64,000 nt of DNA from Limnochordales bacterium. GTDB lineage: Bacteria > Bacillota > Limnochordia > Limnochordales > DUMU01. How positions within the stretch are numbered: position 1 is the first letter of the stretch; each line of letters opens with the position of its first letter. The translations under genes and the position numbers were made by a program. The stretch is taken from positions 142,087 through 206,086 of the forward strand of contig JADBKP010000010.1 in the NCBI GenBank assembly GCA_014896315.1. The letters run 5' to 3'. The notes beneath the pieces were generated by a model. That model did not search any database. It worked only from the letters and a program-made list of their open reading frames with translations, and was not told where the DNA came from. Shown here one piece after another: positions 374 to 61,130 of the stretch.

Positions 374-1678
374 TCACTGGAGGTTCCTGGCAAAGATCGC
401 CTGCAGACGCCGGGCCTGGCCGGGCAAGAGCTGGGCTGCCAGAGCCTGACCCCGGTATATCTGCGGGAAGAGCTCGCCGTCTAGCACGCTCCACCACGAG
501 TCGTCTTTGGTGTAATACCAGGGTTGCACCCGTCCGTATTTCGTGATGATGTCGATGAAGACCATGCGGTTATAAGGAGGCTTTTTCATCTGCAAGAAGT
601 CGGCGAGCAGGTCAATGCGGTTCGGTACCATCTGCCCCATCTCGTAAAGCCTGGTCTGTGCGGTTCTGTCCATGGTCAGATACTTGACCAGCTCGTATGC
701 GAGTTGCGGGTTGGCAGTCTTGGCGCTGACGCCTATTCCCATCGAGCCCACCCAGGTCCGGGATTGACCGGTCCGGGGGCTGGCAGGCCAGGGGGCGATA
801 TCCCACTTGAACTTCAGGTTGTTCCAGAAGAAGGCCTGGTCCCACGGTCCCATGTAGAACGTCGCAATCTTGCCCTGGATCCACCAGTTCCAGTTGTCGG
901 AGTTAGGAGGGGTGGCTACCTTTTCAACTAGAGACAGGTTGGCCACCCACTGAACCGCCTCGATGAACTCGGGAGTATCCACGGCCAGCGCCGTAAGGTC
1001 GGAGTTGAAGTAGTCAGCTCCGTTCGACCATATTGCTCCCTCGATGGGGAAGCCCAGCGGCCACCCGGCCATACCCCAGACGTCTATGCTCCCATCGCCG
1101 TTCCTGTCGCGGGTGAGTTTGCGCCAGAGCGATACGGCTTCCGGCCAGAGTATGGGCTTATCAGCAGGGGGTGGTTTGACCCCGGCCTGTTCGTAGAGAT
1201 CTATGTTGTACACCATGGCCCAGGGCCCGAGGTCCTTGGGAAGTGCCAGAATACTTTTGCCGGTGCCCGGCCGTTTGCCGTCGAACCGGTAAAGGTTGAT
1301 GCCCGCGGGCCAGATGGTCTTGATGGGGGACTCTGTATCCCGTTCAATGAAGGGGGCGAGGTCGAGGAGGATCCCCCCCGCAGCCGCCCAGTTGGCGAAC
1401 TGGTCCAGGGGGACGTAGAACACATCGGGGGCGATCCCGCCGGCGATCATCGCCATCAGCCTGTTGGTGAACTCAGGGGAGGGGACGTACAGGACCTCTA
1501 CCTTCACCCCCGGATGTTCCGCCTCAAACAGGTCGATCACAGCTTCGTATATCTGGCTCTCGGTCGGACCCGTCCAACCCATGAAGACCAGCTTTGTCGC
1601 GCCATAAGCGCTTCCCGCCAGGCCCGCCATGAGGGCCACGATCAACAGGGCAGCCAATGCAGTAGCAGTACGCCTCAT
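374..1678 (-). CDS. ABC transporter extracellular solute-binding protein (CUT1 sugar-binding family)
   Basis: 434-aa ORF with an ATG preceded by GGGAGG (5-nt spacer). Signal peptide MRRTATALAALLIVALMAGLAGSAYG. The length and motifs (KLVFMGW, FVNTNRLMAMIAGG-like, WxxG, MGPW) are typical of family-1 sugar SBPs. Confidence 0.9.
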   Translation of the reverse strand: MRRTATALAALLIVALMAGLAGSAYGATKLVFMGWTGPTESQIYEAVIDLFEAEHPGVKVEVLYVPSPEFTNRLMAMIAGGIAPDVFYVPLDQFANWAAAGGILLDLAPFIERDTESPIKTIWPAGINLYRFDGKRPGTGKSILALPKDLGPWAMVYNIDLYEQAGVKPPPADKPILWPEAVSLWRKLTRDRNGDGSIDVWGMAGWPLGFPIEGAIWSNGADYFNSDLTALAVDTPEFIEAVQWVANLSLVEKVATPPNSDNWNWWIQGKIATFYMGPWDQAFFWNNLKFKWDIAPWPASPRTGQSRTWVGSMGIGVSAKTANPQLAYELVKYLTMDRTAQTRLYEMGQMVPNRIDLLADFLQMKKPPYNRMVFIDIITKYGRVQPWYYTKDDSWWSVLDGELFPQIYRGQALAAQLLPGQARRLQAIFARNLQ

Positions 1679-1777
1679 TCTATTGCCTCCCTTCGAAGTG
1701 GTAAATCAATCCCGCTTGCCGTTCGACCTCGATATCCGCCTTTTATCCGGCTGTCGTTACCCCTTTGGATCATCCGC

Positions 1778-3214
1778 TCAGAGCACTCGTATCGCTACTG
1801 CAAGATCCCGCTCGAAAGCAGGCAGCTGTATCGTCCAGAGGCCGGCGTCGGTCACCACCCGTCTCTCGCCGATGATCTCGCCCTTGTAGGTATCCCAGAA
1901 CTGTACGATCAGGGTCTCGGAGTCGGCTCCGGCGTGAGCCGGCTCTGCCGGGGAAGTGTTGTACTTCTCGTTCCACACCGCTTCCCGCCAGGCCTGGCGC
2001 TCTACCGTGAGCACCGCTCCCTCCACCGCCGCGCGGGATTCCATGTTGAGAAGCCAGAGCAAGGCCCGGGTCTCGTCGGCGACGCCAAAGACGCGGATGT
2101 CGGTGTTAGGTGTCGTTTCGACCGTGGCATAGCGGGCGATGGGAGCGGGAACGAAGCCAGCCCAGTCAAACGCGCTCACAAACCGGGCCAGGGCGGCCTG
2201 GACCTGGTACATTCCCTCGCTCAGGACATGGGGGTTGCGGTAAGGCCACCGCAGCCCCTGGCCGGCGCCGCCGCTCGCCAGATGGGCCCAGGTCATGTTG
2301 TGGTAATACTCGGCGTCAAAGTCAGGGTCGCTGATCCAGCGTTCGATCGGGCCGCTCTCCGTATCGAGATACGGACGTTCATCAGATAGCTGGGAGCGAG
2401 CATAAAGCGTCGCCAGTTCTACGTCCAGGGCGGCGTCCACCGTGTTTACCGGCCGGTTGGTGGCCGCTCCGACATACTGGTGGGTGGTGGCAAAGTCGAG
2501 GTCCGGATGGTCGAGCACCGCATCAACCAGCGCTTTCGAGGGGAAAGGGGTTGCCAGTGAGGCTGTGAGCAGGTGAGTGCGGCCGTAAAGTTCCATCTCC
2601 CGGGCGCGCACGAAGGCGGCTGTCTCTGAGATCCACTGTGATATCTCTTCAGGGTTGGCACCCCACCATAGCTCTATTTCGTTCATCAATTCCCAGGCAA
2701 GAATGGCGGGGGAACTGCCCCATCTTTCGATGGCAAACGCAAGCCGGCGGCGTTGCCAGGCGATGGCCTCCGGGTCGGTAAGGAAGCCTTTCATGCTCTC
2801 CATCGGCCCGCCATTTTGGCGGTTGTAGGGGTTTCTGGACCAGTTACGTTCCATCCAGAAGGGGTCCCAGGGGGTAATGATAAGGTGGATATCGTATATC
2901 TCTGCCAATTTGATGAACCGATCCCAGAACGCCACCACTCGCGGTGAATACTCGCCCAGAGGATTTTCCAGCAATCCGTAGGATTCCTGGGAGTACTCCA
3001 GCATGATGCGAAGAGTGTTGATTCCATTCGCTTTTAGCTTAGCGACATCGTTGTGGCCTATGATTATAAAAGGATTTCCGGATTCGGTTTGAAAGTAATA
3101 TCCCTGGGGCGCGATTCTTATCCATTCCGCTGCATTCACCGGCGACGACAATAACATAAGCAACAGAGTGCCTAGAAGAATGAAACCTATAACTTTACCG
3201 GCCAACCTTCTCAC
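1778..3214 (-). CDS. Secreted glycoside hydrolase family 5 (cellulase/mannanase-type TIM barrel)
   Basis: 478-aa ORF with signal peptide LLLMLLSSPVNA. Contains NGINTLRIMLEY and the acid/base motif AWELMNEIE typical of GH5 (clan GH-A). Confidence 0.85.
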   Translation of the reverse strand: MRRLAGKVIGFILLGTLLLMLLSSPVNAAEWIRIAPQGYYFQTESGNPFIIIGHNDVAKLKANGINTLRIMLEYSQESYGLLENPLGEYSPRVVAFWDRFIKLAEIYDIHLIITPWDPFWMERNWSRNPYNRQNGGPMESMKGFLTDPEAIAWQRRRLAFAIERWGSSPAILAWELMNEIELWWGANPEEISQWISETAAFVRAREMELYGRTHLLTASLATPFPSKALVDAVLDHPDLDFATTHQYVGAATNRPVNTVDAALDVELATLYARSQLSDERPYLDTESGPIERWISDPDFDAEYYHNMTWAHLASGGAGQGLRWPYRNPHVLSEGMYQVQAALARFVSAFDWAGFVPAPIARYATVETTPNTDIRVFGVADETRALLWLLNMESRAAVEGAVLTVERQAWREAVWNEKYNTSPAEPAHAGADSETLIVQFWDTYKGEIIGERRVVTDAGLWTIQLPAFERDLAVAIRVL

Positions 3215-3278: not shown

Positions 3279-4607
3279 CTAGATCCCGAGCTGCTCCCGA
3301 AACTCCTTTATCCGCACCTCCAACTGCTTCTTGCCAGCCTCCAGTGCGGCCTCCACGGGCTGTCGTTCACGCAAGGCCCGGTTCATGATATCCTCGATGA
3401 TCCCCAGTCCCGTACCCCACGGCTGCGGCGGGAAGAAGACGAATTGCTGTTGGACGATGATCTGGTGGTCCTTCAATTGCCGCCACTCTTCGGTGGTCAG
3501 AGCTTCCTTGCGGATTGCTACCTGCCCGTAGCTGGCCCAGGTGGCGCTGTTGCGAGACATGAAGTCAATAAAGGTGGCTATGGCTTGCAGCTTCTCGGGT
3601 CGATCCTTGGATTGCCGGTAGACGACGAACTGGTGTGAACCGGCCCAGACGGCCGGAGCCACATCGCCATAGAGGCGGTCGGCCTTGGCCACGCGGAGGT
3701 CAACTTTGCCCTGGTTGCGCAGGTCCTGGGCTTGCCGCAAGAACCAGATCCCATCGACCGCCATACTGACCTGCCCGGCAAACATATCCGGCCATATCTC
3801 CGGAGGCGGAGCTACCTTGTGTTTAAACATGAGGTCAACCACGTATTGGAGTGCGTTCCGGCCGGGCGGATCGGCCACGGTTACCCGGGTGTAGTTTTCA
3901 CCGCCAAAGTAGTTGCCGCCCATCTGCCGGAGGGCGGTATACCACTGCGGACCCCATATTCCGAAGCGGGTACCCCACTGGTCGGGCTGGTTGTCACCAT
4001 TCTTATCAATGGTCAGTTTGCGGGCGTACTCCAGAAACTGAGCGGCCCGCTGGGGCGGTCCGGGGAGACCGGCATTGTCGAAATGATCCTGATTGTAGTA
4101 AAGGAGGAGGGTGTGGATGTCGAGCGGGATGCCGTAGCGCTTACCTCCGTAGATACCTTCCCGGCTGATCCTGCCGATGAAATCATCGTCTGTAAGTCCA
4201 AGTGACTCGAAGATGTCGTCCACGGGGCGCAGAACGTTTTGCAGCGCAACTTCCGGCATGCGGTCACGGTGTATCAGGCCCAGATCCGGAGGTGAGCCTC
4301 CAGCCACTGCTACAACGACTTTGCTGTAGTACTCGCCCCACTCAATGGGAGTGGGCTGAACGCGGATTTTGCCTGCGTATTGCTGGTTGAACTTATCGAT
4401 AAGGAGATCGAGACCTTCTTTATCCGGGCCGGTTATGCCATGCCAGAGCTCGATGGTCACCTGTCCTGTGCCGCCCGACTGACCCGCCGTGGTAGCTGCA
4501 TTAGCAACGGTGGGGGCACCTACGAGGATGCCAAAGTTAACAAGGATGAGTCCGAACAGCAAAACGGTGACTGACCCGACACGGTTTCTCTTGATCCTGA
4601 GCATCAT
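3279..4607 (-). CDS. ABC transporter extracellular solute-binding protein (CUT1 family)
   Basis: The ORF track gives 3279..4625 with a GTG start. I prefer the ATG at 4607, which follows AGGAGGGA. N-terminal hydrophobic anchor VTVLLFGLILVNFGILVGAPTVANA, then a typical SBP body (IELWHG..., GGSPPDL, MAVDGIWF). Confidence 0.88.
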   Translation of the reverse strand: MMLRIKRNRVGSVTVLLFGLILVNFGILVGAPTVANAATTAGQSGGTGQVTIELWHGITGPDKEGLDLLIDKFNQQYAGKIRVQPTPIEWGEYYSKVVVAVAGGSPPDLGLIHRDRMPEVALQNVLRPVDDIFESLGLTDDDFIGRISREGIYGGKRYGIPLDIHTLLLYYNQDHFDNAGLPGPPQRAAQFLEYARKLTIDKNGDNQPDQWGTRFGIWGPQWYTALRQMGGNYFGGENYTRVTVADPPGRNALQYVVDLMFKHKVAPPPEIWPDMFAGQVSMAVDGIWFLRQAQDLRNQGKVDLRVAKADRLYGDVAPAVWAGSHQFVVYRQSKDRPEKLQAIATFIDFMSRNSATWASYGQVAIRKEALTTEEWRQLKDHQIIVQQQFVFFPPQPWGTGLGIIEDIMNRALRERQPVEAALEAGKKQLEVRIKEFREQLGI

Positions 4608-4658
4608 GCTTCCCTCCTGTTGCACCTGCTTTTCCGAAACCCGTGGGACACTCGTCTT

Positions 4659-4727: not shown

Positions 4728-6274
4728 TCACCTCCTAGGCCAGCAATTAAGCAATTCCGATTTGGCCAGACGGATGGACGGGAAGAGCCGGTCCATCACG
4801 AGGGCGGCAGCGCCAAGAGGCCCGGCATCGCTACCCAGGCGGCCGGCGACTATCTGAACCCGGTTGCGGGCCACGGGCATGGCATGGGTGAGAACGGTCT
4901 CTCTGATAGGTCCAAGCAACATCTCACCGGCACGGGAGACTCCGCCGCCGATCACGATCCGCTCGGGGTTGAGAGTGTTGACCAGGAAGGAGACGGCGAT
5001 GCCGATATAACGGGCGGCCTCATGTATGATGCGGAGCGCCTCGACGTCCCCGGCCGCGGCCGCCCGGGCCACGTCCGCGGCGGTCACGTTGTCGGGAGAG
5101 TCGATCAGGTGCGGCAGATGGGCAAAGGGATATCCTTGCTTGAGCAGACGGGCGGCCTTTCGGGCAATAGCGCGGCCGGAAGCGACTGCCTCAAGGCAGC
5201 CGTAGTTGCCACAGCTGCACTGTGGGCCGTCCTCGGTTACACGGATATGGCCGATCTCGCCCGCGGTTTCGTTTGCCCCGTAATACAGCTGGCCATCCAG
5301 GATCAGGCCCGCGCCGATGGCAGAACCCACAAAAAGGGCCACGAGATTGCGGGAGCTCTCTCCCGCTCCGAACATGTTCTCACCCAGAGTGGCGGCCCGG
5401 ACATCGTTGTCGATGTAGATGGGGACGGTAGGGGGAAGGGGGGAAGGGGGAGGCTCGGGGTTTGGTTCTGGCCACGGCCGGGCCCTTGCCTTTGCCCTTG
5501 CCTTTGCCCATGCTTTTGCGTTTTCCCTTGCGCTTGCCCTTGCTCTTGCGGCTGCCCCTGCCCCTGCCCTTGCTCTTGTCCTTGCCTTTGTCCTTCTTGC
5601 TTGTACTCCTGTATCGCCGTCTGGAGGGCTTGTTCGAGGATGGAACGGACGGCTACGTTGCGCCAGCGCAGGTTGGGGGAGAAGACTGAGTAGCCTTGCT
5701 CGGTGTCTACCAGGCCGGGAATGCCGACGCCGATACCTGCCAGGCGCAGTCTTGGGCTCGCCCCACCTCGGCCCGGTGGCGCGCTGGCTGTGGCCGCGGT
5801 CGGCGCAGGGGTTGTGCCAGTCCTGTTTGCGGCAGTGCTCGCGGACAGGGCTGCAGGTGTGGGATAGGCGAAGTTGGCGATAGCCATGACGATCGCCCTG
5901 GCAACTCGCTGCAGAACCTCTTCGGGGCTCTGGTCCGGGTATGTGGGTAAAGTGGCCCGGGCGAGGGGCTGGCCGCGCAAATCGCTCAACACGGCAACGA
6001 TGTTGGTGAAGCCGACGTTCACCCCGACGACCTGAAAAGCGTCGGGAACGAGCTCGAGCAGAGCCGCGGGGCGGCCGCCACTGGACTCGGCAAAGCTGCC
6101 TTCCCGCACGAGGCCAAGGGCGATCAGCTCGTTGACAATATTGGTGACTGCCGAAGGTGCGAGCTGGCTGCGGCGGGCGATTTCACCCCTGGAGATAGGG
6201 CCGTGGCGGCGGATCAGGTCCAGCACCACCGACCGGTTGATGTTGCGCATACCCGGAAAATTGACGGCCCGCAT
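4728..6274 (-). pseudogene. ROK-family transcriptional repressor (NagC/XylR-like) split by a frameshift inside a Q/G-rich repeat insertion
   Basis: The N-terminal ORF 5303..6274 carries the wHTH (RSVVLDLIRRHGPISRGEIARRSQLAPSAVTNIVNELI). The C-terminal ORF 4728..5375 carries GEIGH and CSCGNYGCLE. The C-terminal frame continues upstream as ..PLPPTVPIYIDNDVRAATLGENMFGAGES. The two frames would join with a 1-nt change in the G4-G6 runs at 5421-5460. Confidence 0.8.
5425..5605. repeat. Degenerate hexanucleotide repeat (CCCTTG/CCTTTG on the + strand; CAAGGG-type on the coding strand) encoding (Q-G/Q-R)n inside the ROK gene
   Basis: The + strand reads gcccttgcctttgcccttgcctttgccc...gcccttgctcttgcggctgcccctgcccctgcccttgctcttgtccttgcctttgtcc. 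The protein reads QEGQRQGQEQGQGQGQPQEQGQAQGKTQKHGQRQGQRQG. Confidence 0.85.
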
Positions 6275-6580: not shown

Positions 6581-8092
6581 ATGGCTAAGACGCTGGCGAA
6601 GCAGGGGCAAGCGCAGGGATTAGAGCAAGGACAAGTGCAGGTGCAAGCGCAAGAGCAAAGGCTGACTCAGGAACATCAGCAAGCCCAGCAACAGCAGCAA
6701 GTTCAGGAGCAGCAGGGCCACCAGGCCCACACGCGGCCGGCACGGTTGCTGCCGGGTGAGAGGCCGGGCCGCCGCATCAAGGTAGTCATGCTGGGGGCAG
6801 GCAGCGGGTTTACCCAACCCCTCGTGACCGATATTCTCAATATCCCGAGCCTGCCGGGCGGGGAGATCGCCCTGGTCGACATCGACGCTGAACGGTTGGA
6901 GCTGGCCCACCAGCTAGTGGCCAAGCTCATCACCGTCATGGGCAAGGAAGGCAGCTGGAGCGTGACGGCGACGACGGAAAGGCGGCGGGCGTTGCCGGGC
7001 GCGGATTACCTCGTCAACTGCATCGAGGTGTCGGGAACGAAGGCCGTGAAGTTCGACTACGAGATTCCGCTCAAGTATGGGGTGGACCAGTGCATTGGCG
7101 ATACCATCGGTCCGGGCGGATTGATGAAGGCGTTGCGCACGATCCCGGTCTGGGTGGAGGTGCTCAAAGATGCCGAGGAGCTCTGCCCGCAGGCACTGGT
7201 GCTCAACTATACCAACCCGATGAGCATGATGTGCCTCGCCGCAGCGAAAGTCTCCCGGATGCAGGTGGTCGGGCTCTGTCACAGCGTCCAGGGTACGAGT
7301 CGCCTGCTGGCCCACCATGCGGGCGTTCCTTACAACGAAATGCAGTGGAAATGCGCCGGAATAAACCATCTGGCCTGGTTCACCGAACTGACCCATAACG
7401 GGCGCGACCTCTATCCGATCTTGTTTGAGAAGGCGCGGGATCCCAACAGCGAGTTCTACCAGGGTGATCCGGTGCGATGCGACATTATGCTGCACTTTGG
7501 GGCGTTCGTCACCGAGTCGAGCGGCCACTTGAGCGAGTATCTTCCCTATTACCGTAAGCGCAAAGATCTGATGGAGAAGTACATTCGCAGCGGCTATAGG
7601 GGCGAAAGTGGCTTCTACGCCCGCAACTGGCCCAACTGGCGGCGGGGAACGGACGAATACCGGCGCAAGGTGATTGCCGGCGAGGTGGAGATCAAGACGG
7701 AACGGAGCTGGGAATATGCCAGCTACATCATCGAGGCGCATCAGACCAACCGGCCTTATGTGATTCACGGAAACGTGATCAACCACGGGCTGATCGATAA
7801 TCTGCCGCAAGGGCAGTGCGTTGAGGTGGCGGTTATGGTCGACGGCAATGGGTTCAACCCGTGCCGGTTTGGGGAGTTGCCACCGCAGATGGCCGCCATC
7901 TGCCGCAGCAATATGGCCATGTTTGAACTGGGAGTTATTGCGGCGCTGGAAAGCAGCCGGGAGGCGGCAGCCCACGCGCTGATGCTCGATCCCCTAACGG
8001 CGGCGGTTCTGTCGCCGGCCGAGATCAAGCAGATGACCGAGGAGTTGATCGAGGCGGAGCTGGAGCTGTTGCCCGGGTTTCAGCGGAGTTGA
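6581..8092 (+). CDS. Glycoside hydrolase family 4 alpha-galactosidase/alpha-glucosidase (NAD/Mn-dependent) with a Q-rich N-terminal extension
   Basis: 503-aa ORF with the ATG 8 nt after GGAGG. Rossmann motif KVVMLGAGSGF, EIALVDID and GLCHSVQGT are typical of GH4 (MelA/AglA-like). The first ~60 aa are low complexity. Confidence 0.88.
   Translation: MAKTLAKQGQAQGLEQGQVQVQAQEQRLTQEHQQAQQQQQVQEQQGHQAHTRPARLLPGERPGRRIKVVMLGAGSGFTQPLVTDILNIPSLPGGEIALVDIDAERLELAHQLVAKLITVMGKEGSWSVTATTERRRALPGADYLVNCIEVSGTKAVKFDYEIPLKYGVDQCIGDTIGPGGLMKALRTIPVWVEVLKDAEELCPQALVLNYTNPMSMMCLAAAKVSRMQVVGLCHSVQGTSRLLAHHAGVPYNEMQWKCAGINHLAWFTELTHNGRDLYPILFEKARDPNSEFYQGDPVRCDIMLHFGAFVTESSGHLSEYLPYYRKRKDLMEKYIRSGYRGESGFYARNWPNWRRGTDEYRRKVIAGEVEIKTERSWEYASYIIEAHQTNRPYVIHGNVINHGLIDNLPQGQCVEVAVMVDGNGFNPCRFGELPPQMAAICRSNMAMFELGVIAALESSREAAAHALMLDPLTAAVLSPAEIKQMTEELIEAELELLPGFQRS
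6599..6731 (+). repeat. CAAGNG/CAGCAG-type degenerate repeat encoding the Q-rich N-terminus of the GH4 enzyme
   Basis: DNA reads caaggacaagtgcaggtgcaagcgcaagagcaaagg...cagcaacagcagcaagttcaggagcagcag. The protein reads KQGQAQGLEQGQVQVQAQEQRLTQEHQQAQQQQQVQEQQ. Confidence 0.8.
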
Positions 8093-8719: not shown

Positions 8720-8781
8720 TAACGGTGAGGCGGTTACAGGAGACGACTTTGACTGGGCCTGACAAGGGGGCGCCCTGCTGG

Positions 8782-9810
8782 ATGCCGACCATTCGTGACG
8801 TGGCAGCCCTGGCCGGTGTTTCAATTACAACGGTTTCCAGGGTAATCAATGGGAAGAGTTCTCAGATACCAATCAGCGAAGCAACACGAGATCGGATACT
8901 GGCAGCCATACAGACGCTGGGGTACGAGCCTAACGTCATGGCAAAGGGACTGGCTGGACGGCGGTCCCACGCGATCGGGCTGGTGATGTACGATCTAGTA
9001 CACATCACGCATCCGAACTTCTCCCAAATTGCCCACGGTATCGCTACAGCCCTAAGTGATTGCAGCTATGACTTGATGCTACTCCCGATCAAGGGGAAGC
9101 TCCCCCAGAAGAGTTCCAAACCGGTATCCATGGCCTCCTACTACAAACAGCGCCGGGTGGATGGGTTAATCGTAGCGGCTCAAGAAGCCTCGGTAGAAAG
9201 CATTCTGGAACTACATGCGATCGGCTGCCCGTTCGTGCTACTTGGCACGTATCTCCCCGGCAAAGACGTTCCGTGCGTTCGAGTAGATGCGCAGGGAGGA
9301 ATCGCACAGGCAGTGACGCATCTTGTCGGCCTGGGGCACCGACGGATTGGGTTCATTAACGGCCCCGTGGGGTTCCGCATCAACGACGATATGGCAGTAG
9401 GATACCGCCAAGTACTAGAGCCGCTGGGATTGTATGATCCTGCACTCCTGGTGTCGTCGGACTTCACCCCTAAAGCAACCCGGGAGCGCGCTCACCAGTT
9501 GCTCGCTATGCCGGACCGGCCAACGGCGATTCTCGCTGCCGATGATCTTATGGCTGCCGAGGTAGTGCAGGTAGCCCGGGAGGTGGGGCTTTCCGTGCCG
9601 GATAACCTTTCGGTTGTCGGCTATGCGGATTTACCTGTAGCAAGGACCCTAAGCCCCACGCTCACCACGGTCAGAATTCCCATCTCCGAGTCTGGGCGAC
9701 TTGCGGCGGAAATGCTTCTGCAGCTGCTGGATGGGGCGAAACCCGAGGTAGCCTGTATAACCCTTCCGGCTGAACTGGTCGTTCGGCAGTCCACGTCTGC
9801 TCCCCCTTAG
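8782..9810 (+). CDS. LacI-family transcriptional regulator
   Basis: The ORF track starts at GTG 8725. I prefer ATG 8782, which gives the canonical N-terminus MPTIRDVAALAGVSITTVSRVING (HTH_LacI), followed by a periplasmic-binding-protein-like sugar-binding core. Confidence 0.9.
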   Translation: MPTIRDVAALAGVSITTVSRVINGKSSQIPISEATRDRILAAIQTLGYEPNVMAKGLAGRRSHAIGLVMYDLVHITHPNFSQIAHGIATALSDCSYDLMLLPIKGKLPQKSSKPVSMASYYKQRRVDGLIVAAQEASVESILELHAIGCPFVLLGTYLPGKDVPCVRVDAQGGIAQAVTHLVGLGHRRIGFINGPVGFRINDDMAVGYRQVLEPLGLYDPALLVSSDFTPKATRERAHQLLAMPDRPTAILAADDLMAAEVVQVAREVGLSVPDNLSVVGYADLPVARTLSPTLTTVRIPISESGRLAAEMLLQLLDGAKPEVACITLPAELVVRQSTSAPP

Positions 9811-9887
9811 TGGGCAGTCACTTGTATTCGCAGAAGCTATGGACAATCCGTGGCTTTAAGATGAGCCAGAATAGGGAGGTAGCGAAC

Positions 9888-11753: not shown

Positions 11754-11795
11754 CGAAATTCGTGAAGTTTGGCAAAAGAAAGGAGAGAGCAAGAT

Positions 11796-13043: not shown

Positions 13044-13079
13044 GCCAGGGTCAGAGCGTCAGGTTGCCACCGCCGCGGG

Positions 13080-13113
13080 TACCGGCCCTCCGACAGATTC
13101 CGGGAGGCCGGTA
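13080..13113 (+). terminator. Stem-loop downstream of the SBP gene (imperfect)
   Basis: taccggccctcc (13080-13091) pairs with gggaggccggta (13102-13113), giving 8 + 3 bp with one bulge. There is no U-tract. Confidence 0.3.
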
Positions 13114-13262
13114 TGCCCGGCGGCAGATAAATCTGAACGAAGATCAGGGGACCGACACAGAAGGTGGTCGACACTTGATGGGCAGCCTTGCAGGCCAGGG
13201 GGACGAACGAAGTGGGCACAGTTTGACGCTTACACCCCCAATGAAAAGGTCGGTGAGGGATA

Positions 13263-47948: not shown

Positions 47949-48023
47949 CGGAGTGTCTCAGAGGGGTGAAGGGGTGTCCGTATGGGTGAACACGTAGGAA
48001 GAAGAGAGACGGCGCCGGTCCGA

Positions 48024-50799: not shown

Positions 50800-50880
50800 A
50801 GCCATACCTCCTGGCGCTGGTAGGAGTGCGGTACTGATCAACTTTAGCGTATTGATCGTACCGGTAGTATATTGCGGCGT

Positions 50881-53418: not shown

Positions 53419-55716
53419 CTACTCCTCCTCCGATGTTTTGGACCGGACGTCGGTCTGGTTGCCGCTGTGGGTGACCTTTGACCGAAGGGTGTTGCGGAGC
53501 GGCTTACCGGGATCGAGCGGTTTGGCACGCCTGCGGAATGGCCCCTCGGCCAGCACGATCTGCGCCTTCTCCGCCAGGGTGCTGGCGGAGTACAGGCAGA
53601 TCCCGGTGGCCACCCGACTTTGACGGGCCACGGTGATCTGGTCGACCAGCTCTGCGGGGGTCAGCAGCCAGCTGCCGATTCCGTGCAAAAGGCCGGTCCG
53701 GACCGGGCCTGACGCTGTCCTGGCGACAAACTCCCCCTCTCCGGCCAGGACGCGCTGGCGAAAGACCTCCAGGGAGGGGGTGTAGTTGGTTGTTACCAGG
53801 CAGTCGACAAGAGGCCGTCTGCCTTTGCCGCCGACCCATTCCGGCCAGGCCTGATGCATCTCCCCCAAGGCGAACTGAGGGTCGGGCCAGACGGTGGCCG
53901 AGAGCTCTTTGCCGTGCCGGTGAACCACCCGCGCGATGGTGCGCAGAAGGGCGGTGACGTTGCGAGCCCGCCACCGGTTGAAATCGAGCGCCCCGACGCC
54001 GTCTTTCTGCTTTTCCCGATTTTCCCGATTACCCCGAGCTTGAGCCCGGGCGAACGCCGCCAGGCTCGCAGGCGCATAGCCGAAAGGAGCCAGGCTTTCT
54101 TCGTGGTATCGCAGGTAGTCCAGGTGCAAGCCGGCGAGCGGGTAGCTCGCAAGGAGTTCCTCTGCCAGTTCGGCAAAGAATCGACGGACGGCCGGGAGGG
54201 CCGGATTCAGCCAGGCGGTGCCTTGCGGAGTTGGGGCGATGGTATCACCCGAAATAGAACGGTCGGCCCAGTCGGGATGCCGGCGAAGCAGCGGACCTTC
54301 GTCAAAGTCGTAACCAGCACAGAGAACCCATAGCCAGGGCACAACCACTATGCCGCGCCGGCCCCCTTCTTGCAGCAGGAAGGCGAGCGGGTCTTCGTCG
54401 TTCCAAACCTGGCGCATGCTCTCGTCCGCCGGGGCGATCCGGCTGGGATAAGCGGCCGCTCCGCGGCTGAATACCTCAGCAAAGGCCAGGTTGATACCCA
54501 GGTCGTGGAACCGATCGAGCTGCCGCCGCAGCTCCGACGGCCCGCCGAGCAATGCCGGGCGGTCTATCCAGATCGCCCGTGTCTCTTGTTCCCGGCTTTC
54601 TACGGTCAGGGCAGCCGCCCGGTCCGCCAGGCGGGCCGCGCGAGCCGCCGTGCTCTTTACTCCCTGCTCGCCGGCGGGGGCGCGCCGGTACGACTCCCGC
54701 GCCTTCTCCAGGAGAGCTTTGGCCAGGTCCAGCTCCGCACGGGCAGGTTGGATTTCAGACTGATCGGTGGCGGCCGCCCGTGCCAGGCAGGCTTCGGCGC
54801 GGGTCACCGCCTGTTCCGCGCGGCGGAGAAAGAGCCAGGCCGGCTGGTGCGGGCTGGCTCCGGGAGGACATAGCAGGCGTATTTCCCGGATCTGCGCCCA
54901 GTAGACCTGGTCGGCGGTGACCAGGATGCGTAGATAGCGCGCCGGCCGTGCGGGAAAAGAGAGTGAGAGTTCCGGCAGCCCGTTTAACCGGCCGACAGTC
55001 TGCCAGTCTTGCTGGTCCGCGGAGAGTTGAATTACCCCTGTGTACAGGTAATCTGCCGGGCGCACGTACTCGCCAGTGAAACTACCCATGAAAAGATGAA
55101 TTCCACAGACGGGGTACTGCTCGCCGAGATCGATGAGAAGATAGTCGCCGGTCCTGGGGGGCCTTTCGGTCCAGTAGAACGTATCCAGGTCGCCATCCAG
55201 AGCTGCCTCCGGCCGCGTCCCGAGCGCTGCGCCCAGGTTGCTTGTCTCAAGACGTGCCGCGGGCACGATCAGCCATTCCGGGCTGGCAGAAGAAAGAGGC
55301 GCAGAGCCTGGCAAAGGCAGCTGAGGAGGTGAACAGGCAAGCAGATGGTTTCCCCCCGCTGCTGCCAGGCGGGCAGCAAGCCTCCACTGCGCCAGGACTT
55401 GATCGCGCGTCAAATGGGCGAGGCCGGTAAGAGCCAGGCGCACGCGTTCGGGCACTCGCCCGGCTGCCAGAACCAGCTCGTCAGGAGCGGGATGCTGGAA
55501 GTAGTCGGCCAGCTGGCGCACAACTGCTTCGGACGGGGTGGTCACCCCGCGTTCTAGCTGGCTGAGGTAGGCAAAGTGCAGTCCCACTTCCGCGGAGAGG
55601 CGGCGCAGGCTGAGGCCGCGGGCGAGCCGGCTCTGACGCAACCAGCGGGCAAACCTCAACTCGGGTGCCTCTGCTTCATGATCTAAGAGAAGCATATCCT
55701 GCTGGTGACTTTTCAT
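53419..55716 (-). CDS. XRE-family HTH fused to a CBM32-like domain and a GHL10 (DUF187) glycosidase-like TIM barrel; no TM segment seen
   Basis: 765 aa. HTH: FARWLRQSRLARGLSLRRLSAEVGLHFAYLSQLERGVTTPSEAVVRQLADYF. CBM32-like: ALDGDLDTFYWTERPPRTGDYLLIDLG..ARYLRILVT..VYWAQIREIRL. GHL10: ETRAIWIDRP..DPLAFLLQEGGRRGIVVVPWLWV..TAWLNP..LAGLHLDYLRYHEE. The next gene starts 3 nt after its stop. Confidence 0.85.
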   Translation of the reverse strand: MKSHQQDMLLLDHEAEAPELRFARWLRQSRLARGLSLRRLSAEVGLHFAYLSQLERGVTTPSEAVVRQLADYFQHPAPDELVLAAGRVPERVRLALTGLAHLTRDQVLAQWRLAARLAAAGGNHLLACSPPQLPLPGSAPLSSASPEWLIVPAARLETSNLGAALGTRPEAALDGDLDTFYWTERPPRTGDYLLIDLGEQYPVCGIHLFMGSFTGEYVRPADYLYTGVIQLSADQQDWQTVGRLNGLPELSLSFPARPARYLRILVTADQVYWAQIREIRLLCPPGASPHQPAWLFLRRAEQAVTRAEACLARAAATDQSEIQPARAELDLAKALLEKARESYRRAPAGEQGVKSTAARAARLADRAAALTVESREQETRAIWIDRPALLGGPSELRRQLDRFHDLGINLAFAEVFSRGAAAYPSRIAPADESMRQVWNDEDPLAFLLQEGGRRGIVVVPWLWVLCAGYDFDEGPLLRRHPDWADRSISGDTIAPTPQGTAWLNPALPAVRRFFAELAEELLASYPLAGLHLDYLRYHEESLAPFGYAPASLAAFARAQARGNRENREKQKDGVGALDFNRWRARNVTALLRTIARVVHRHGKELSATVWPDPQFALGEMHQAWPEWVGGKGRRPLVDCLVTTNYTPSLEVFRQRVLAGEGEFVARTASGPVRTGLLHGIGSWLLTPAELVDQITVARQSRVATGICLYSASTLAEKAQIVLAEGPFRRRAKPLDPGKPLRNTLRSKVTHSGNQTDVRSKTSEEE

Positions 55717-55816
55717 CGGTTATCGGTTCACCTGCTTGTTAATGGGTGGGCACCGTTGGCTCGTGGTACCACCCGTTTGTGAACCAGTATTCCGCAAGCA
55801 TGGCAGGATTCCCTTC

Positions 55817-55841
55817 TGTAGTGTAGAAATACTACACTACA
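55817..55841. promoter_or_regulatory. Perfect 10-5-10 inverted repeat; candidate operator in the divergent promoter region between the HTH-GHL10 gene and the SBP/GHL10 operon
   Basis: tgtagtgtag aaata ctacactaca. The right arm overlaps a tacaat -10-like hexamer (55837-55842), about 38 nt before the SBP GTG at 55880. Confidence 0.6.
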
Positions 55842-55879
55842 ATCACCAACCGCCCCTGCGGAACAAGGAGGGAGTATCC

Positions 55880-57199
55880 GTGAGTCGACGTCAAGGTGGG
55901 CGTGGGCGCTGGTATAGCGGCAATTTGGGGATCATGATGGCAGTCCTTGTCGTGTTGTTCCTGGTCGGTTTCAATGTCAGGACCGGTCCGGTATGGGCGG
56001 CCCCGGTGGAGCTAACTTTCTACCACCAATGGGTGGGCAAGGATGCCGAGCTGTTGCAGGCGATAGTGGACGAATTCAATCGCAGCCAGAAAGAGATCCG
56101 CGTCAAGTTCATTCCGAACGCGAGTCTGGAGAAGCAGCTGGTGGCCATTGCCGGAGGCTCGGGGCTTGATATCGGTTACGTTGCCTGGAGCAACGTGCCG
56201 GGACTGGTGGAGAAGAAGGTAGCGTTGCCGCTCGACAGTTTCCTGGCGGATCCCAAGAGCGCTCTGAAACCGGGGGACTTCATCCCGGCTGCCCTGGAAT
56301 TGGGTCGGATTGAAGGGGTCCAGTACGGGCTTCCCATGACAGTGGATATCAAGATGATGTTCTACAACACCGATATCCTCGACGAAAAGGGTATCCCGAT
56401 TCCGGAGACCGCCGGCCAGTTCCAGGAAATGCAGCGCCGCGTGTTTGAGAAGGGACCCGACGGGAGGATTCGCCGCCTGGGATTCCTGCCGGAGTACCCG
56501 TGGTTGTCAGTGGGCCTGTGGGAGCTGGTCTTCGGCGGGCGATTCTACGATCCCGTCACCCGCCAGGTTACCCCCGACGATCCTCGCAATATCCTCGGCA
56601 TAAAGTTTATGCTCTTTCCGTATCAGACGTTCGGGTTTGGCGCGGTACGAGCGTTCCAGCAATCGTGGGGTGGGTACTGGACCAACAATGACCCATTTGT
56701 GACGGAAAAACTCGTTTCCACCGCGGACGGGGAATGGCTCCCGTTGATGCTCTCGCAGCTTGCCCCCAGGATGTCCTACCGCATAGCTCCGTTGCCTTAT
56801 CCGGATGATCGCCCCGATCTGAAGTACAGCTCCTTGCTCGAACCAGGGATGCTCTTCGTCGCCGCCAACACCCGCCATCCCCGCGAGGTGTGGAAGTTCC
56901 TGGAGTATCTTGAGTCCGCCGAACAGACGGTGCGCATCTGCGCAGGCAAAGGTTCGCTTCCCCACTTGCGAACTGTTTTGACCGATTCCCGTTTGTGGAC
57001 GGGAACGGCGCCGGGTATGAAGGAGTTTGTATGGTATTTGCACAGTCCCAACATGCGTACCTTCCCCAATCTGAGTATCACTTCACAGTATATGAGTGCG
57101 ATCTGGACCGAACTGCAGAAAGTATTTAGCGGTGAACAGACCCCGGAGGCAGCCATGCGGAGGGTAAAAGAACAGATCCAACCGTTGTTGCGGCGGTAA
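55880..57199 (+). CDS. ABC transporter extracellular solute-binding protein (CUT1 family)
   Basis: The ORF track starts at 55736. GTG 55880 lies 6 nt after AAGGAGGGAG and gives VSRRQGGRGRWYSGNLGIMMAVLVVLFLVGF.., an N-terminal anchor, followed by a typical SBP body. Confidence 0.85.
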   Translation: MSRRQGGRGRWYSGNLGIMMAVLVVLFLVGFNVRTGPVWAAPVELTFYHQWVGKDAELLQAIVDEFNRSQKEIRVKFIPNASLEKQLVAIAGGSGLDIGYVAWSNVPGLVEKKVALPLDSFLADPKSALKPGDFIPAALELGRIEGVQYGLPMTVDIKMMFYNTDILDEKGIPIPETAGQFQEMQRRVFEKGPDGRIRRLGFLPEYPWLSVGLWELVFGGRFYDPVTRQVTPDDPRNILGIKFMLFPYQTFGFGAVRAFQQSWGGYWTNNDPFVTEKLVSTADGEWLPLMLSQLAPRMSYRIAPLPYPDDRPDLKYSSLLEPGMLFVAANTRHPREVWKFLEYLESAEQTVRICAGKGSLPHLRTVLTDSRLWTGTAPGMKEFVWYLHSPNMRTFPNLSITSQYMSAIWTELQKVFSGEQTPEAAMRRVKEQIQPLLRR

Positions 57200-57253
57200 T
57201 CCGAGCTGTAAAGGACGAGATATGACATCGACTGAAGAGAAGGAGTGCAGACC

Positions 57254-58342
57254 ATGGCGGCAGATACGAACATATTTGCTCACATAGGTGTCTGGCTCAA
57301 CCGTGAAGACCTGCTTTCCCGCAAGCCAGGACAGCTTGAATACATTTTCGACCAGATGGCCGCCATGGGTGTGACGCACGTCTATCCTGAACTCTATTTC
57401 CGGGGCGGCGCCGCTTATCCGAGCGGAGTCGCCCCGGAGCACGGCGAGTTTCGTTCCCGCCGCATATTGCTGGATAAGAATCAGCGACCCGAGGACATAG
57501 TGTCAGAGCTGCTGCGCCTTGCTCGCGAGCGTAATATTCAGGTTCATCCGTGGGTGTGGGTCTTCTGCGCGGGGTATTGGCATACCTACGGGCCTATACT
57601 GGAATGCCATCCCGAATGGGCGGAGCTTGACCAGGACCGGCATCCTTTTTCAAACTGGCGGTACGGTACGGCCTGGCTCTGCCCGGTTTTGCCGGCAGTG
57701 CGCGAGTACTTGCTGGCCGTGCTGGCGGAACTGGTAACGCGCTGGCCCGTAGACGGGGTCCATCTGGACTACATCCGCTACAACGAGGAGGAGGCTGGCT
57801 CGTTTGGTTTTCACCCGGCTTCTCTGGCACAATTCCGGGAAGATACCGGAATGAGCGAACCGGGTCATGGCGGACGGGATGCCGACGACCAGGAGCGACG
57901 GGCCGCCTGGACGGCCTGGCGGGCGGGTAACGTGACCCGCTTTCTGACCGAGGCGGTTCGACGTTTACGCGCCCTTCGCCCCGGTATCAGGATATCGGCG
58001 GCGGTAGTGCCCGATCCGGATCTTGCGTATCGCAACGCCTGCCAGGAGTGGGCCAGGTGGGCGGAAGAAGGGCTGCTGGACCATGTACTGCCCATGGCTT
58101 ACCGCACGAACCTGGCGGAGTTGCGCGCTGTCCTCACGGTACTGCGGGAACGGCTGGCGGGCCGTGGTAGGGGCAGTGCGGGTGCGGCGCTCTATCCGGG
58201 TCTGGCCGTTTGGGTGAGTCCGGAGGAAATCGTCCGCCAGGTAGAGATCGTGCGGGAGCTGGGTTTCGAGGGAGTGACTCTCTTCTCGACCCTCAACCTT
58301 ACACCCGCCCACTACACTGCGCTGCGGGCTGTGTTGCGCTAG
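57254..58342 (+). CDS. GHL10 (DUF187/YngK-like) family protein; bare TIM barrel with no signal peptide
   Basis: The ORF track starts at GTG 57245; ATG 57254 lies 8 nt after AAGGAG. Motifs: HIGVWLNRED..MGVTHVYPELYFRGGAAYPS..NIQVHPWVWVFCAGY..TAWLCP..PVDGVHLDYIRYNEEE. Confidence 0.85.
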   Translation: MAADTNIFAHIGVWLNREDLLSRKPGQLEYIFDQMAAMGVTHVYPELYFRGGAAYPSGVAPEHGEFRSRRILLDKNQRPEDIVSELLRLARERNIQVHPWVWVFCAGYWHTYGPILECHPEWAELDQDRHPFSNWRYGTAWLCPVLPAVREYLLAVLAELVTRWPVDGVHLDYIRYNEEEAGSFGFHPASLAQFREDTGMSEPGHGGRDADDQERRAAWTAWRAGNVTRFLTEAVRRLRALRPGIRISAAVVPDPDLAYRNACQEWARWAEEGLLDHVLPMAYRTNLAELRAVLTVLRERLAGRGRGSAGAALYPGLAVWVSPEEIVRQVEIVRELGFEGVTLFSTLNLTPAHYTALRAVLR

Positions 58343-58503: not shown

Positions 58504-58518
58504 CAGTAGGTGATATCT

Positions 58519-59664
58519 GTGCCCACTATCCTGGATGTAGCCCGTCTGGCTCAGGTTTCCAAGAGCACTGCTTCCCGGGTGTTGAATGGGTTTTCCGGCA
58601 CACCGCCGGAGGTCAGAGAGCGGGTCTTTGCCGCGGCCCGGGCCCTTGGCTACGAACCCGATGCCTCCGCCCGCGGCCTTGTCCGGCGCAAAACCGAGAC
58701 CATCGGTGTTGTTGTGGCAAAGGTTGGTGATCCTTTCTTCGCTGCTTTCCTCCGGGGGGCAGGTGATGCCGCGGCCGAAGCCGGCTACTCCCTCACCATC
58801 ACCAGCGGCGAGTGGGCCGAGGAAGAAGTAGCCTATCAGCGGCTGATTCGCCAGCGCCGTGTCGACGGTCTGCTCTTTATCAGCGGGCCGGTGCTTTCAC
58901 CCAAGCTCAGGCAGCAGCTTTCTCGCTCGGACCTTCCCGTTGTCATGGTTGACCGTGACGAGGAAGATTGGCAGTTGCCCATAGATAGGGTGAACGCCGA
59001 TAACCGGGCAGCAATTGCTCGCGCCGTAGCCTGGCTCAAGTCCCGGGGCCACACCCGCATCGCCTTCGTCGGTGGCCCGAGCAACGTCCCGGCCGCCCAG
59101 CGGCGGCTGGAAGGCTACCGTCAGGGGCTGAGGGATTGCCATCTTCCCTACGACGCTTCTTTAGAGTTGCCGGGAGATTTCAGCCCGCAGGCCGGGATCG
59201 CTGCCCTCCCCCGGCTCCTTGAGGTCCGCCCGCGGCCGACGGCTGTCATTGCGGCCAACGACCTGACGGCCATAGGAATCTTGCGGGCGGCGGCAGAGGC
59301 AGGGGTGAGGATTCCCGACGACCTGTCGGTCCTGGGGGTTGACGACATCGATGCTGCTGGTTGGGTAAACCCACCCCTGACGACTTTGCACCAACCGTGC
59401 TACGAGATGGGCAGGCGGGGCGTAGAGCTGCTCCTTTCCCGGATCGAGGAGAAGGCGTTGCAGACTCGGGCAAACTCCCGTACCGGCAACCCTCCCACCC
59501 CCGAGCCGGGGACACCAACGGAAGTTCTTCATGAGGTGCTTTCCATGCAGCTCGTGGTACGTGAGAGCGTGGCGGAGATTCGGGGGACTCACCGCCGTGA
59601 GGACGATCTCCCATCCGGAAGCTGTGCAGATGCTGCAGGAAGGATGGGAGGTGAGAGAAGGTAG
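58519..59664 (+). CDS. LacI-family transcriptional regulator
   Basis: The ORF track starts at GTG 58510. GTG 58519 gives MPTILDVARLAQVSKSTASRVLNG, the HTH_LacI motif, followed by a sugar-binding core and a roughly 50-aa non-conserved tail. Confidence 0.9.
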   Translation: MPTILDVARLAQVSKSTASRVLNGFSGTPPEVRERVFAAARALGYEPDASARGLVRRKTETIGVVVAKVGDPFFAAFLRGAGDAAAEAGYSLTITSGEWAEEEVAYQRLIRQRRVDGLLFISGPVLSPKLRQQLSRSDLPVVMVDRDEEDWQLPIDRVNADNRAAIARAVAWLKSRGHTRIAFVGGPSNVPAAQRRLEGYRQGLRDCHLPYDASLELPGDFSPQAGIAALPRLLEVRPRPTAVIAANDLTAIGILRAAAEAGVRIPDDLSVLGVDDIDAAGWVNPPLTTLHQPCYEMGRRGVELLLSRIEEKALQTRANSRTGNPPTPEPGTPTEVLHEVLSMQLVVRESVAEIRGTHRREDDLPSGSCADAAGRMGGERR

Positions 59665-59828
59665 CGTTAGAGCCCAGACGCTACCAGGCGCAACCAGTGA
59701 CATTCTGATGCAACCGGGGTAACCAGCGGCAACCAGAGGTATAATGAGCGGCTCAGACTCTGATGGATGTGGGATGTCAGATCAACTTGACGGTTTGTGG
59801 GGGCCTAAGATGGGAAGGAGTGTGAACC

Positions 59829-61130
59829 ATGAGAACGAGGTTAAGCTTGGTCTTGACGCTAGCCGCCGCATTGTTTGTTGGGCAGATCCTGGGGGCATCA
59901 CCACTGATTGCAGCCAGTCAGCAAGGGACCGCTTCAATCACAAAGATCACGTTTAGCATGATGATGAATAGTGTGGAAGAAGTTGCGAACTACCGAGCAT
60001 TGATCGACCAGTTCAATGCAGCTAACAAAGATGTCAAGGTTGAGTTTCTTGAGATCAGCGGCGACTACTACCAGAAAATAATCTCTATGATTGCTACTGG
60101 GACTGCTCCCGATCTCTTCTGGTATGGCGGAACCAACTCAGCACAATTGATTCGCGATGGTGTCCTTGCTGACCTCGTGCCTTTCATCGAAAATGATCCT
60201 GACTTCAACCTTGCCGATTTCTTCCCCAGTGCTGTTAACCCATTCCGCTGGCAAGGCGGTCTCTACGGAATACCTCGAGATGTGTCACCGCTCGTGATGT
60301 ATTACAATGTCGACTCTTTTGCTAACGCCGGGCTTCAGTCGCCCAATGATCATCACGACCGCAAAGCATGGAATTGGGACAACTTCCTCAGTGTCGCCAA
60401 GAAGCTGAGTGCCCCCAATGCCCCCACACCGCGTTATGGCATGAGCACAGACTGGTGGTGGGGTCTGTGGTTCCCGTGGATTCTCACAAATGGCGGGGAG
60501 ATCTTCTCGCCGGACTATAAGGAAGCTCGCTTCGATTCGCTCAAGGCACGCGAAGGTTTGAAGTTCTTCGTGGATCTGATTCATGTTCACAAGGTTGTGC
60601 CCAGCCCTGATCAAGCCAACGCCCTGGGCGGGCACTGGGAGCTCTTTGTTCGCGGCCAGGCGGCCATGTATCCCACCGGGCGGTGGGCCGTGCCGGGGCT
60701 GCGCCAGACCAAAGGTCTGAACTTCGACGCTGTGGTCATGCCGTACCGGGTCCGGCAGGGCAGTCCGCTCTTTACCGGTATCTATGCCATTTCTGCCGCG
60801 TCCACCAAGAAACAGGCTGCCTGGAGGCTCCTCAAGTGGATGGTTAGCCCGGAGGCGCAGCTGAGGCTGGCGGCACTGGGTCAGGTGTTGCCCTCCCGCT
60901 TGTCGGCGGCCGTTTCCAAGGAGTTTATCAACTCTGTGCCGCCAAAGCACAACATGGTCTTCGTCGAGGCGGCGCAACACGGCTATCTTGAACCGGTCTT
61001 CCCCGAGTTTGGCAAAGTCATGGACGTCACCTGGGGTCCGTTCTGGGAGATGTTCAACGGCAGGATGACGGTGGACAACGCCCTTGACTCGATCATGCCG
61101 CAAGTCAGGCAGATCATGGGCATGAAGTGA
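59829..61130 (+). CDS. ABC transporter extracellular solute-binding protein (CUT1 family)
   Basis: 433 aa with the ATG 8 nt after GGAAGGAG. Signal peptide MRTRLSLVLTLAAALFVGQILGASPLIAA, then a typical SBP body (GTAPDLFWYG, GQAAMYPTGRW). Confidence 0.9.
   Translation: MRTRLSLVLTLAAALFVGQILGASPLIAASQQGTASITKITFSMMMNSVEEVANYRALIDQFNAANKDVKVEFLEISGDYYQKIISMIATGTAPDLFWYGGTNSAQLIRDGVLADLVPFIENDPDFNLADFFPSAVNPFRWQGGLYGIPRDVSPLVMYYNVDSFANAGLQSPNDHHDRKAWNWDNFLSVAKKLSAPNAPTPRYGMSTDWWWGLWFPWILTNGGEIFSPDYKEARFDSLKAREGLKFFVDLIHVHKVVPSPDQANALGGHWELFVRGQAAMYPTGRWAVPGLRQTKGLNFDAVVMPYRVRQGSPLFTGIYAISAASTKKQAAWRLLKWMVSPEAQLRLAALGQVLPSRLSAAVSKEFINSVPPKHNMVFVEAAQHGYLEPVFPEFGKVMDVTWGPFWEMFNGRMTVDNALDSIMPQVRQIMGMK

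Follow-up and report, generated by a model that had tools for sequence, protein, structure and literature searches.

Solute-binding proteins of CUT1 type are encoded with glycoside hydrolases and regulators, and apart from permeases, in a Limnochordales lineage

We have analysed a 64,000-nucleotide stretch of a Limnochordales genome (assembly GCA_014896315.1, contig JADBKP010000010.1, positions 142,087 to 206,086; 'the window' throughout means this whole stretch), in which genes for solute-binding proteins (SBPs) of the CUT1 class of ATP-binding cassette (ABC) sugar importers stand among glycoside hydrolase (GH) and regulator genes without any permease or ATPase gene. Every sampled CUT1 SBP in the clade is unlinked from permeases in the same way, and the families concerned are as divergent as any two CUT1 SBPs. 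The explanation that we favour, with moderate confidence, is that these are working periplasmic SBPs that depend on remote and probably shared translocators, and that the units of SBP, hydrolase and regulator are exchangeable modules; we infer both that such translocators exist and that they are shared.

Results

Eight binding-protein genes and no permease

The Pfam family SBP_bac_1 (PF01547) exceeded its gathering score on eight open reading frames (ORFs) of the window, at 28.9-140.8 bits against a cut-off of 26. Seven of these CUT1-type genes are intact and one, SBP6, is frameshifted; there is also one true PstS. The Pfam scan took in every ORF of at least 150 aa, and neither BPD_transp_1 nor ABC_tran was present on any of them. 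What it did recognise, in a stretch of ~60% G+C, was a series of glycoside hydrolases or GH-like proteins (GH4, GH123-like, MGH1/GH63-like, GH3, three GHL10, GH35 and fragments of GH32), four LacI regulators and one split ROK regulator, the remainder comprising housekeeping genes, a chemoreceptor, a copper-type two-component pair, a CLC channel and an insertion sequence (IS) transposase.

Four further searches gave the same answer. A six-frame hydropathy scan returned a single ORF with multiple transmembrane (TM) segments, the CLC channel at 38753-41089; a Walker A motif with an LSGGQ signature occurs in no frame of the window; tblastn of 14 diverse CUT1 permeases gave a best E of 0.03; and a custom hidden Markov model (HMM) made from 78 CUT1 permeases had no match in the window, though it recognised 178 ORFs in other loci. 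Neither tblastn nor the custom HMM detected permease pseudogene remnants in the window. The initial annotation, made from the letters of the sequence, had claimed that these 64 kb contain no ABC permease or ATPase gene and no long multi-TM ORF of permease type in any frame, and both claims are borne out. It had also recognised that permeases might lie just beyond the ends, which is not what we find. On the left, an independent Logan assembly supplies a further 10 kb, comprising BNR_2, GH51 and GH2 genes and then a type I CRISPR-Cas system, with no permease. The right flank was judged from an 87%-identical relative (L004) and not from the source genome; the 10 kb to the right of GH35 there hold a LysM protein, an ABC-2 exporter and unrelated genes, again without a permease.

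The binding proteins are conserved sugar-binding proteins

Each of the seven intact SBPs matches, over roughly its full length, solved sugar-binding proteins of ABC importers, with best PDB E-values ranging from 1e-19 to 2.5e-85; the matches include AbnE (2.5e-85), Lmo0181 (1e-41) and MnBP1 (5e-24), the first being that of SBP1 to an arabino-oligosaccharide binder. HMM searches did not reclassify the proteins, as the initial annotation had allowed that they might: NCBIfam gave only weak, sub-threshold matches to the MalE, GanS and UgpB equivalogs, and reassignment on that basis was rejected. Pairwise identity among the eight is only 21-29%, which implies old and separate specificities rather than a recent expansion.

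The SBPs are clearly under strong purifying selection. By the NG86 method, dN/dS lies at 0.06-0.12 for SBP1, 2, 4, 5 and 8 against their orthologues in the lineage (SBP1 0.08-0.12, SBP2 0.09) and reaches 0.23 in the most distant pair, these ratios being rough because dS is partly saturated. The GH genes beside them lie above the SBP range, at 0.15-0.24, as seen where SBP8 (0.06-0.09) adjoins GH35 (0.15-0.24).

With regard to location, the initial annotation had described N-termini that lack a lipobox and resemble uncleaved anchors. The first part stands, since inspection found a lipobox cysteine in none of them. The second does not: in each N-terminus a basic n-region is followed by an h-region, with small residues at -3/-1 (AYG-A, ANA-A, AHA-A, VWA-A, ASA-A and similar, the hyphen marking the cleavage point), and by inspection these are ordinary cleavable signal peptidase I signal peptides with an AXA-type site, not anchors. 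The SBPs carry no anchor, SLH or carbohydrate-binding module (CBM) domain, and Pfam shows neither fusion to a GH nor a docking domain for one. The closest named relative is a Limnochordaceae metagenome-assembled genome (MAG), with 72% identity for SBP8 and 57% for GH35, and Limnochordia are Firmicutes whose diderm envelope includes an outer membrane (PMC11456536). Soluble, unanchored periplasmic SBPs are what is expected in a diderm Limnochordia cell. The suggestion that they capture glycans at the cell surface is consequently disfavoured by the cleavable signal peptides, by the absence of anchor, SLH and CBM domains, and by this periplasmic setting.

The arrangement is a trait of the lineage

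SBP1, SBP5 and SBP8 were traced into relatives at 45-90% identity, in NCBI MAGs and in Logan, JGI and ENA assemblies. Together with the window, the 16 loci recovered, from five or more genomes and with flanks of up to 10 kb, amount to ~245 kb including redundant stretches and contain 29 SBP gene occurrences; the custom HMM found no CUT1 permease near any of them. At least 15 distinct SBP families (differing by >50%) lie beside GHs and LacI-type regulators in these loci. L004 is collinear with the window, L023 repeats the gene order SBP2-GH5-like-SBP1 at 82-90% identity, and L033/L034 (84%) repeat SBP4-SBP5-unknown-LacI, followed there by a DUF4434 gene and a heparinase-II/III-like gene. Further loci have SBPs with GHs and regulators and no CUT1 permease in their flanks (L028, 74%; L030, 70%), the sets SBP-GH35-LacI and LacI-GHL10-SBP (L026, 49%), an SBP preceding GH94 (L006), or a GntR-type regulator and an SBP with nothing else related (L027, 45%). 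Two 21-kb stretches of MAG AS04akNAM_94 carry three SBPs each, including LacI-SBP-GH144-like-GH94, SBP-GH35-GH3 and GH16-SBP. No module that we examined contains an alternative transporter gene. The permease-free arrangement is therefore a trait of the lineage, not of the window locus alone.

Three candidates for a membrane partner hidden in the modules were considered and rejected: by inspection of its sequence, L024 3-2006 is a SpoIIE-like protein, L026 3-1517 is a membrane spermidine-synthase-like protein, and L006 19416-21248 is an ABC exporter. Nor have all ABC importers of the lineage been uncoupled in this way, because L033 keeps a normal operon of NMT1-type SBP, permease and ATPase 8 kb from its SBP4/5 module. 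A genome scan with an alignment of 12 CUT1 permeases placed no Limnochordia permease among the best 80 of at least 600 stretches.

Two database entries deserve separate mention. L023 (JBLNBY010000103.1) is filed under a Bacteroidota MAG despite its lineage genes, probably through a binning error, and L110 (JBLNBS010000053.1), an 80-kb contig of 65% G+C filed under a Patescibacteria-group MAG of the same project, looks similarly doubtful.

Outside the lineage the association is different. A CUT1 permease lies within 3 kb of the SBP in 73 of 95 outgroup loci, that is, in 73 of the 83 with enough flanking sequence, against none of at least 14 lineage SBP families (Fisher p=7e-11 for 0/14 against 73/83). 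A Ktedonobacteraceae locus reads LacI-SBP-permease-permease-GH, an AbnE-like locus of Paenibacillus (L031) reads HTH-SBP-permease-permease-GH43-GH2 with an SBP 41% identical to SBP1, and Chloroflexi homologues of the GH4 in the window lie within SBP-permease-permease-GH4 operons. There are a few exceptions: in Brevinema, Brevinematia and an unclassified MAG (L036, L038, L040, L051), SBP homologues at 32% identity stand beside GH13 or GH57 amylases, and flanks of up to 10 kb contain no permease, so the arrangement may recur in other diderm lineages. A different departure is seen in Chthonomonadales/Armatimonadota, where a distant SBP8 homologue forms the N-terminal half of a single ORF of ~810-870 aa; six TM segments and an EAA motif in the other half show this to be a CUT1 SBP fused to its MalF/G-type permease (loci L011-L013, L015-L019 and L022 (match from ~10001); proteins P0054 and P0064).

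That the whole pattern is a product of misassembly, or that the SBPs are relics left behind after permease loss, we regard as highly improbable. Signs of decay do exist in the window: frameshifts affect the SBP6-GH32 module and the ROK gene, and there is an IS element. However, the gene order is repeated in independent NCBI, Logan, JGI and ENA assemblies, purifying selection on the seven intact SBPs is strong, and permease fragments are absent.

Modules move and change without permeases

Two observations indicate what the unit of inheritance is. The SBP8-GH35 pair is kept in five genomes (the window and four others) while its surroundings change completely; in the Bu26 MAG it lies amid unrelated housekeeping genes. 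Secondly, 2.1 kb has been replaced between two strains whose flanking DNA is ~98% identical (L024 17572-19648 against L028 15988-18119): two SBP genes with 20% amino acid identity occupy one slot, and the 3' part of the neighbouring LacI gene has been exchanged too. The breakpoint lies inside the LacI gene, the ~200 N-terminal residues being identical and the remainder ~65% identical. The swap implies that the SBP and the part of the regulator that does not bind DNA change together, with no permease involved.

These observations bear on the possibility that each SBP has its own dedicated permease pair elsewhere in the genome, one to one, the gene order having been scrambled and nothing being shared. 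CUT1 systems are normally one to one, as they are in the outgroup loci, and this gives the idea some plausibility; we nevertheless consider it unlikely. Among 29 SBP occurrences in ~245 kb some chance or residual linkage would be expected, yet none is seen and permease remnants are absent as well; a dedicated permease would be left without its SBP both by the swap of an SBP-only cassette and by the movement of an SBP-GH pair; and tandem SBPs, which are found in the window (SBP4-SBP5) and also in L024 and L028, suggest several binders per translocator. Since SBPs stand beside GHs and never beside permeases, the permeases most likely have their genes in other parts of the genome and are shared.

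Gene modules of the window

The features of the window are collected in Table 1. The initial annotation had stated that each SBP gene is followed by a GH, another SBP or a regulator; this is generally so, except that the gene following SBP3 encodes a secreted protein of no recognisable GH family.

Table 1. Coordinates of modules and associated genes in the 64-kb window
Feature	Position	Strand	Evidence or remarks
SBP1, AbnE-like arabino-oligosaccharide-type binder	374-1678	-	SBP_bac_1 E=8.8e-33; PDB 6rjy (AbnE) E=2.5e-85
Secreted GH5-like protein between SBP2 and SBP1	1778-3214	-	No Pfam match; faint precomputed GH5_mannosidase match; signal peptide
SBP2	3279-4625	-	SBP_bac_1 E=1.7e-26; PDB Lmo0181/AbnE ~1e-19
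ROK regulator split in two overlapping ORFs, upstream of SBP2	4728-6274	-	Pfam; MarR-type helix-turn-helix and ROK N-terminal part on 5303-6274, ROK C-terminal part on 4728-5375
GH4 glycosidase without signal peptide	6581-8092	+	Glyco_hydro_4, Glyco_hydro_4C
LacI	8725-9810	+	One module with GH123-like and SBP3
GH123-like, signal peptide	9810-11753	+	Same module
SBP3	11769-13043	+	Same module
SBP4	26399-28009	+	SBP_bac_1
SBP5	27981-29387 (gene-call start 28053)	+	SBP_bac_1
732-aa exported protein, no Pfam family	29394-31592	+	After SBP4-SBP5
LacI	31629-32687	+	After SBP4-SBP5
Decaying fructan module	41493-49392	+	LacI, SBP6, IS transposase, GH32 fragments
LacI	41493-42617	+	Fructan module
SBP6, frameshifted pseudogene	42734-43591 (ORF), readable to ~44083	+	Partial SBP_bac_1 profile match
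DDE-type IS transposase	44239-45312	-	Inside fructan module
GH32/Laminin_G_3 fragments, four or more	45963-49392	+	Fructan module
PstS, orphan phosphate-binding protein	49723-50841	-	PBP_like_2 (Pfam); TIGR00975, 410.6 bits against cut-off 205
GHL10 with F5/8 type C domain, signal peptide	51049-53415	-	Pfam
HTH_3, F5/8 type C and GHL10 fusion	53419-55716	-	Pfam
SBP7	55736-57199 (gene-call start 55880)	+	SBP_bac_1
GHL10 without signal peptide	57245-58342	+	After SBP7
LacI	58510-59664	+	One module with SBP8 and GH35
SBP8	59829-61130	+	Same module
Exported GH35	61150-63699	+	Same module

The SBP1 operon runs on to the left of the window, where BNR_2 has a signal peptide and GH51 and GH2 have none. 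The split of the ROK gene is identical in the independent Logan assembly, so the frameshift is probably real. Downstream of SBP3, two paralogous secreted proteins of ~200 aa (13263-13865 and 14008-14670, plus strand) share the motif YILLQAE.FDG.GTDPTK and belong to no Pfam family. The 732-aa exported protein, possibly a lipoprotein (LSGC), always follows SBP4-SBP5, its counterpart in L033 lying at 11407-13641.

In the fructan module the initial annotation was right that SBP6 is one of eight SBP genes and has decayed, but the gene is a frameshifted pseudogene and not simply truncated. It has at least two frameshifts, with the distal part in two other frames; that it was cut off by the IS element was therefore rejected, since the rest of the gene is present. 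The Logan contig ends at this IS element.

The orphan state of pstS, which the initial annotation had noted, was confirmed: the protein matches the PstS family, and pstC, pstA and pstB are found neither in the window nor beside the orthologue in L004 (494-1570; a ~86-87% relative). The gene is downstream of two GHL10 genes, an arrangement kept in L004, and has a dN/dS of 0.15. One of these GHL10 genes encodes the HTH_3 fusion, a protein of 765 aa with an XRE-type helix-turn-helix domain, no TM segment and no signal peptide, which is 82% conserved in L004 and may be a regulator sensing through a GH-like domain.

Discussion

In proposing how such modules work, we need to explain why well-conserved sugar-binding proteins accompany both exported and unexported hydrolases, and cytoplasmic regulators, with no means of import encoded beside them. 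In our model the translocator would be a MalF/G-type permease pair with an MsmX/MsiK-type ATPase, encoded elsewhere and probably serving many SBPs, and the unit inherited, regulated and exchanged would be a permease-free module in which GHs and one or two SBPs accompany a regulator of the LacI, ROK or GntR class. First, a polymer would be cut by exported hydrolases in the periplasm or outside the cell. The resulting oligosaccharide would be caught by the SBP of the module, which would dock on the remote translocator. Breakdown would then be completed in the cytoplasm by the hydrolases of the module that have no signal peptide, and the imported sugar would be sensed by the cytoplasmic regulator. 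Of the three explanations that the initial annotation had offered (permeases encoded elsewhere and shared, a sensory pathway, or glycan capture at the surface), the first fits best, given the AbnE-like SBP1, the selection on the SBPs, the unexported hydrolases and the LacI and ROK regulators; the interpretation as a whole is partly supported.

The classical scheme, exemplified by AbnEFJ, is that oligosaccharides released by exported enzymes enter through an ABC importer and are degraded to the end inside the cell. The AbnEFJ importer of Geobacillus stearothermophilus (AbnE structure 6RJY) resembles the SBP1 operon both in its binding protein, here an AbnE-like SBP with arabinan-type BNR_2, GH51 and GH2, and in its scheme of exported cutting enzymes combined with hydrolases that lack a signal peptide. 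It differs in that abnF and abnJ, the permease genes that are present in Paenibacillus L031, are absent here (window, L001, L023, L024, L028 and L030). Hydrolases without a signal peptide are GH51 and GH2 after SBP1 and the GHL10 at 57245 after SBP7, with GH4, which we take from knowledge of the family to be cytoplasmic, and a GH63-like gene nearby; GH94, found in the relatives, is a phosphorylase family that works in the cytoplasm. The regulators that travel with the SBPs (LacI, ROK, GntR-PBP) are all cytoplasmic ligand-binding types. Unexported hydrolases and cytoplasmic regulators in the same modules imply that the sugars must be imported.

An alternative that dispenses with ABC import altogether is that the SBPs hold or present oligosaccharides for periplasmic GHs, the final mono- or disaccharides entering through unrelated, SBP-independent transporters. 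Exported partners are indeed numerous (GH5-like, BNR_2, GH123-like, GH35, the GHL10 at 51049 and the 732-aa protein), SBP and GH genes follow one another closely or overlap, the custom HMM saw no permease, and orphan SBPs adjoin GH13 and GH57 amylases in Brevinematia too. Yet an SBP closed over its ligand would shield it from the enzyme, and we know of no case of a CUT1 SBP passing its substrate to a hydrolase. No SBP is fused to a GH or bears a docking domain for one, the operon of the AbnE-like SBP1 includes two unexported hydrolases, GH51 and GH2, directed at the same class of glycan, and oligosaccharide import is indispensable to the classical AbnEFJ pathway. We accordingly give this proposal a low probability, comparable to that of dedicated permease pairs.

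SBPs might also signal ligand occupancy to chemoreceptors or sensor kinases without feeding transport, after the manner of MBP-Tar or CuaD-CuaSR. SBPs are known to act as sensors as well (PMC11113362), and the window does have one chemoreceptor (36845-38692) and one kinase/regulator pair (23143-25403). However, neither in the window nor in the 16 lineage loci does an SBP gene adjoin one for a histidine kinase or a chemoreceptor; the kinase (23143-24663) has copper-type genes (cupredoxin and YHS) as its neighbours and the chemoreceptor is isolated; and the regulators that move with the SBPs are of the cytoplasmic LacI, ROK and GntR types. The sensory pathway that the initial annotation had suggested is thus without contextual support, and we think it very unlikely.

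Several points weigh against the explanation by remote translocators. No CUT1 permease of the lineage has been seen and, since all of the ~245 kb sampled was selected for lying around SBP or GH genes, it is by deduction alone that translocators exist, in whatever number, and are shared. The usual view is that a CUT1 permease recognises its own SBP and adds to specificity, so that it would be no simple matter for SBPs with only 21-29% mutual identity to dock on one translocator. Some SBPs could act only in the periplasm, given that a number of the partner hydrolases are exported. Finally, the assignment to Limnochordia, and with it that of a diderm envelope, rests on best matches, at 72% and 57% identity, to one named MAG. 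A stronger form of the explanation, which we put forward tentatively and hold to be a serious possibility though somewhat short of an even one, is a hub with spokes: one or a few SBP-less translocators would accept dozens of SBPs sharing 21-29% identity, and specificity would be swapped as permease-free cassettes.

Orphan SBPs and translocators that serve several SBPs are already established; what differs here is the scale, consistency and diversity of the phenomenon in one clade, and we found no paper describing a permease-free SBP arrangement in Limnochordia. Several SBPs per importer are known from HisJ/LAO-HisQMP and from Cbc with CbcX/CaiX/BetX, and MppA is an orphan SBP used with Opp (MppA-OppBCDF) (PMC3173086). 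These systems share with our model one translocator and several SBPs, some encoded apart; they differ in having two or three fairly similar SBPs of amino-acid, peptide or osmolyte families, whereas here a whole clade has at least 15 highly divergent sugar SBP families, all unlinked from permeases.

The Bug proteins are tripartite tricarboxylate transporter (TTT) receptors of a diderm. [quoted passage not shown] There as here, genes for periplasmic binding proteins are in large excess and lack neighbouring membrane components, but TTT is a secondary and not an ABC class, the SBP fold family is another, and there is no organisation with GHs.

The nearest parallel among CUT1 proteins is in Bifidobacterium, where the membrane components on which orphan LT-SBPs depend are proposed to come from other loci (PMC8110962) and where the human milk oligosaccharide cluster of B. 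infantis has six closely related family-1 SBPs (F1SBPs), such clusters being described with ABC transporters and hydrolases (PMC3057974). Here too several CUT1 SBPs are embedded among GHs. Theirs, however, are closely related monoderm lipoproteins in clusters that contain ABC transporters, while those of Limnochordales are soluble, of signal-peptide type and 21-29% identical, with no permease in 64 kb or in the sampled relatives.

Orphan SBPs are usually seen as scattered exceptions; in this lineage they are the rule, over many unrelated sugar specificities. Annotation pipelines and predictors of polysaccharide-utilisation-locus type that require a regulator, a transporter and an enzyme would miss or mis-score such loci, and organisms of this kind are common in compost and biogas reactors. 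Should the translocators prove few in number, they would have to accommodate SBPs and oligosaccharides of very different kinds, which bears on SBP recognition and on the evolution of substrate range, and they would offer a natural chassis for changing specificity by SBP exchange alone. Were the arrangement of a hub with spokes to prove true, a CUT1 translocator would be far more promiscuous for SBP and substrate than the MalFGK2 paradigm.

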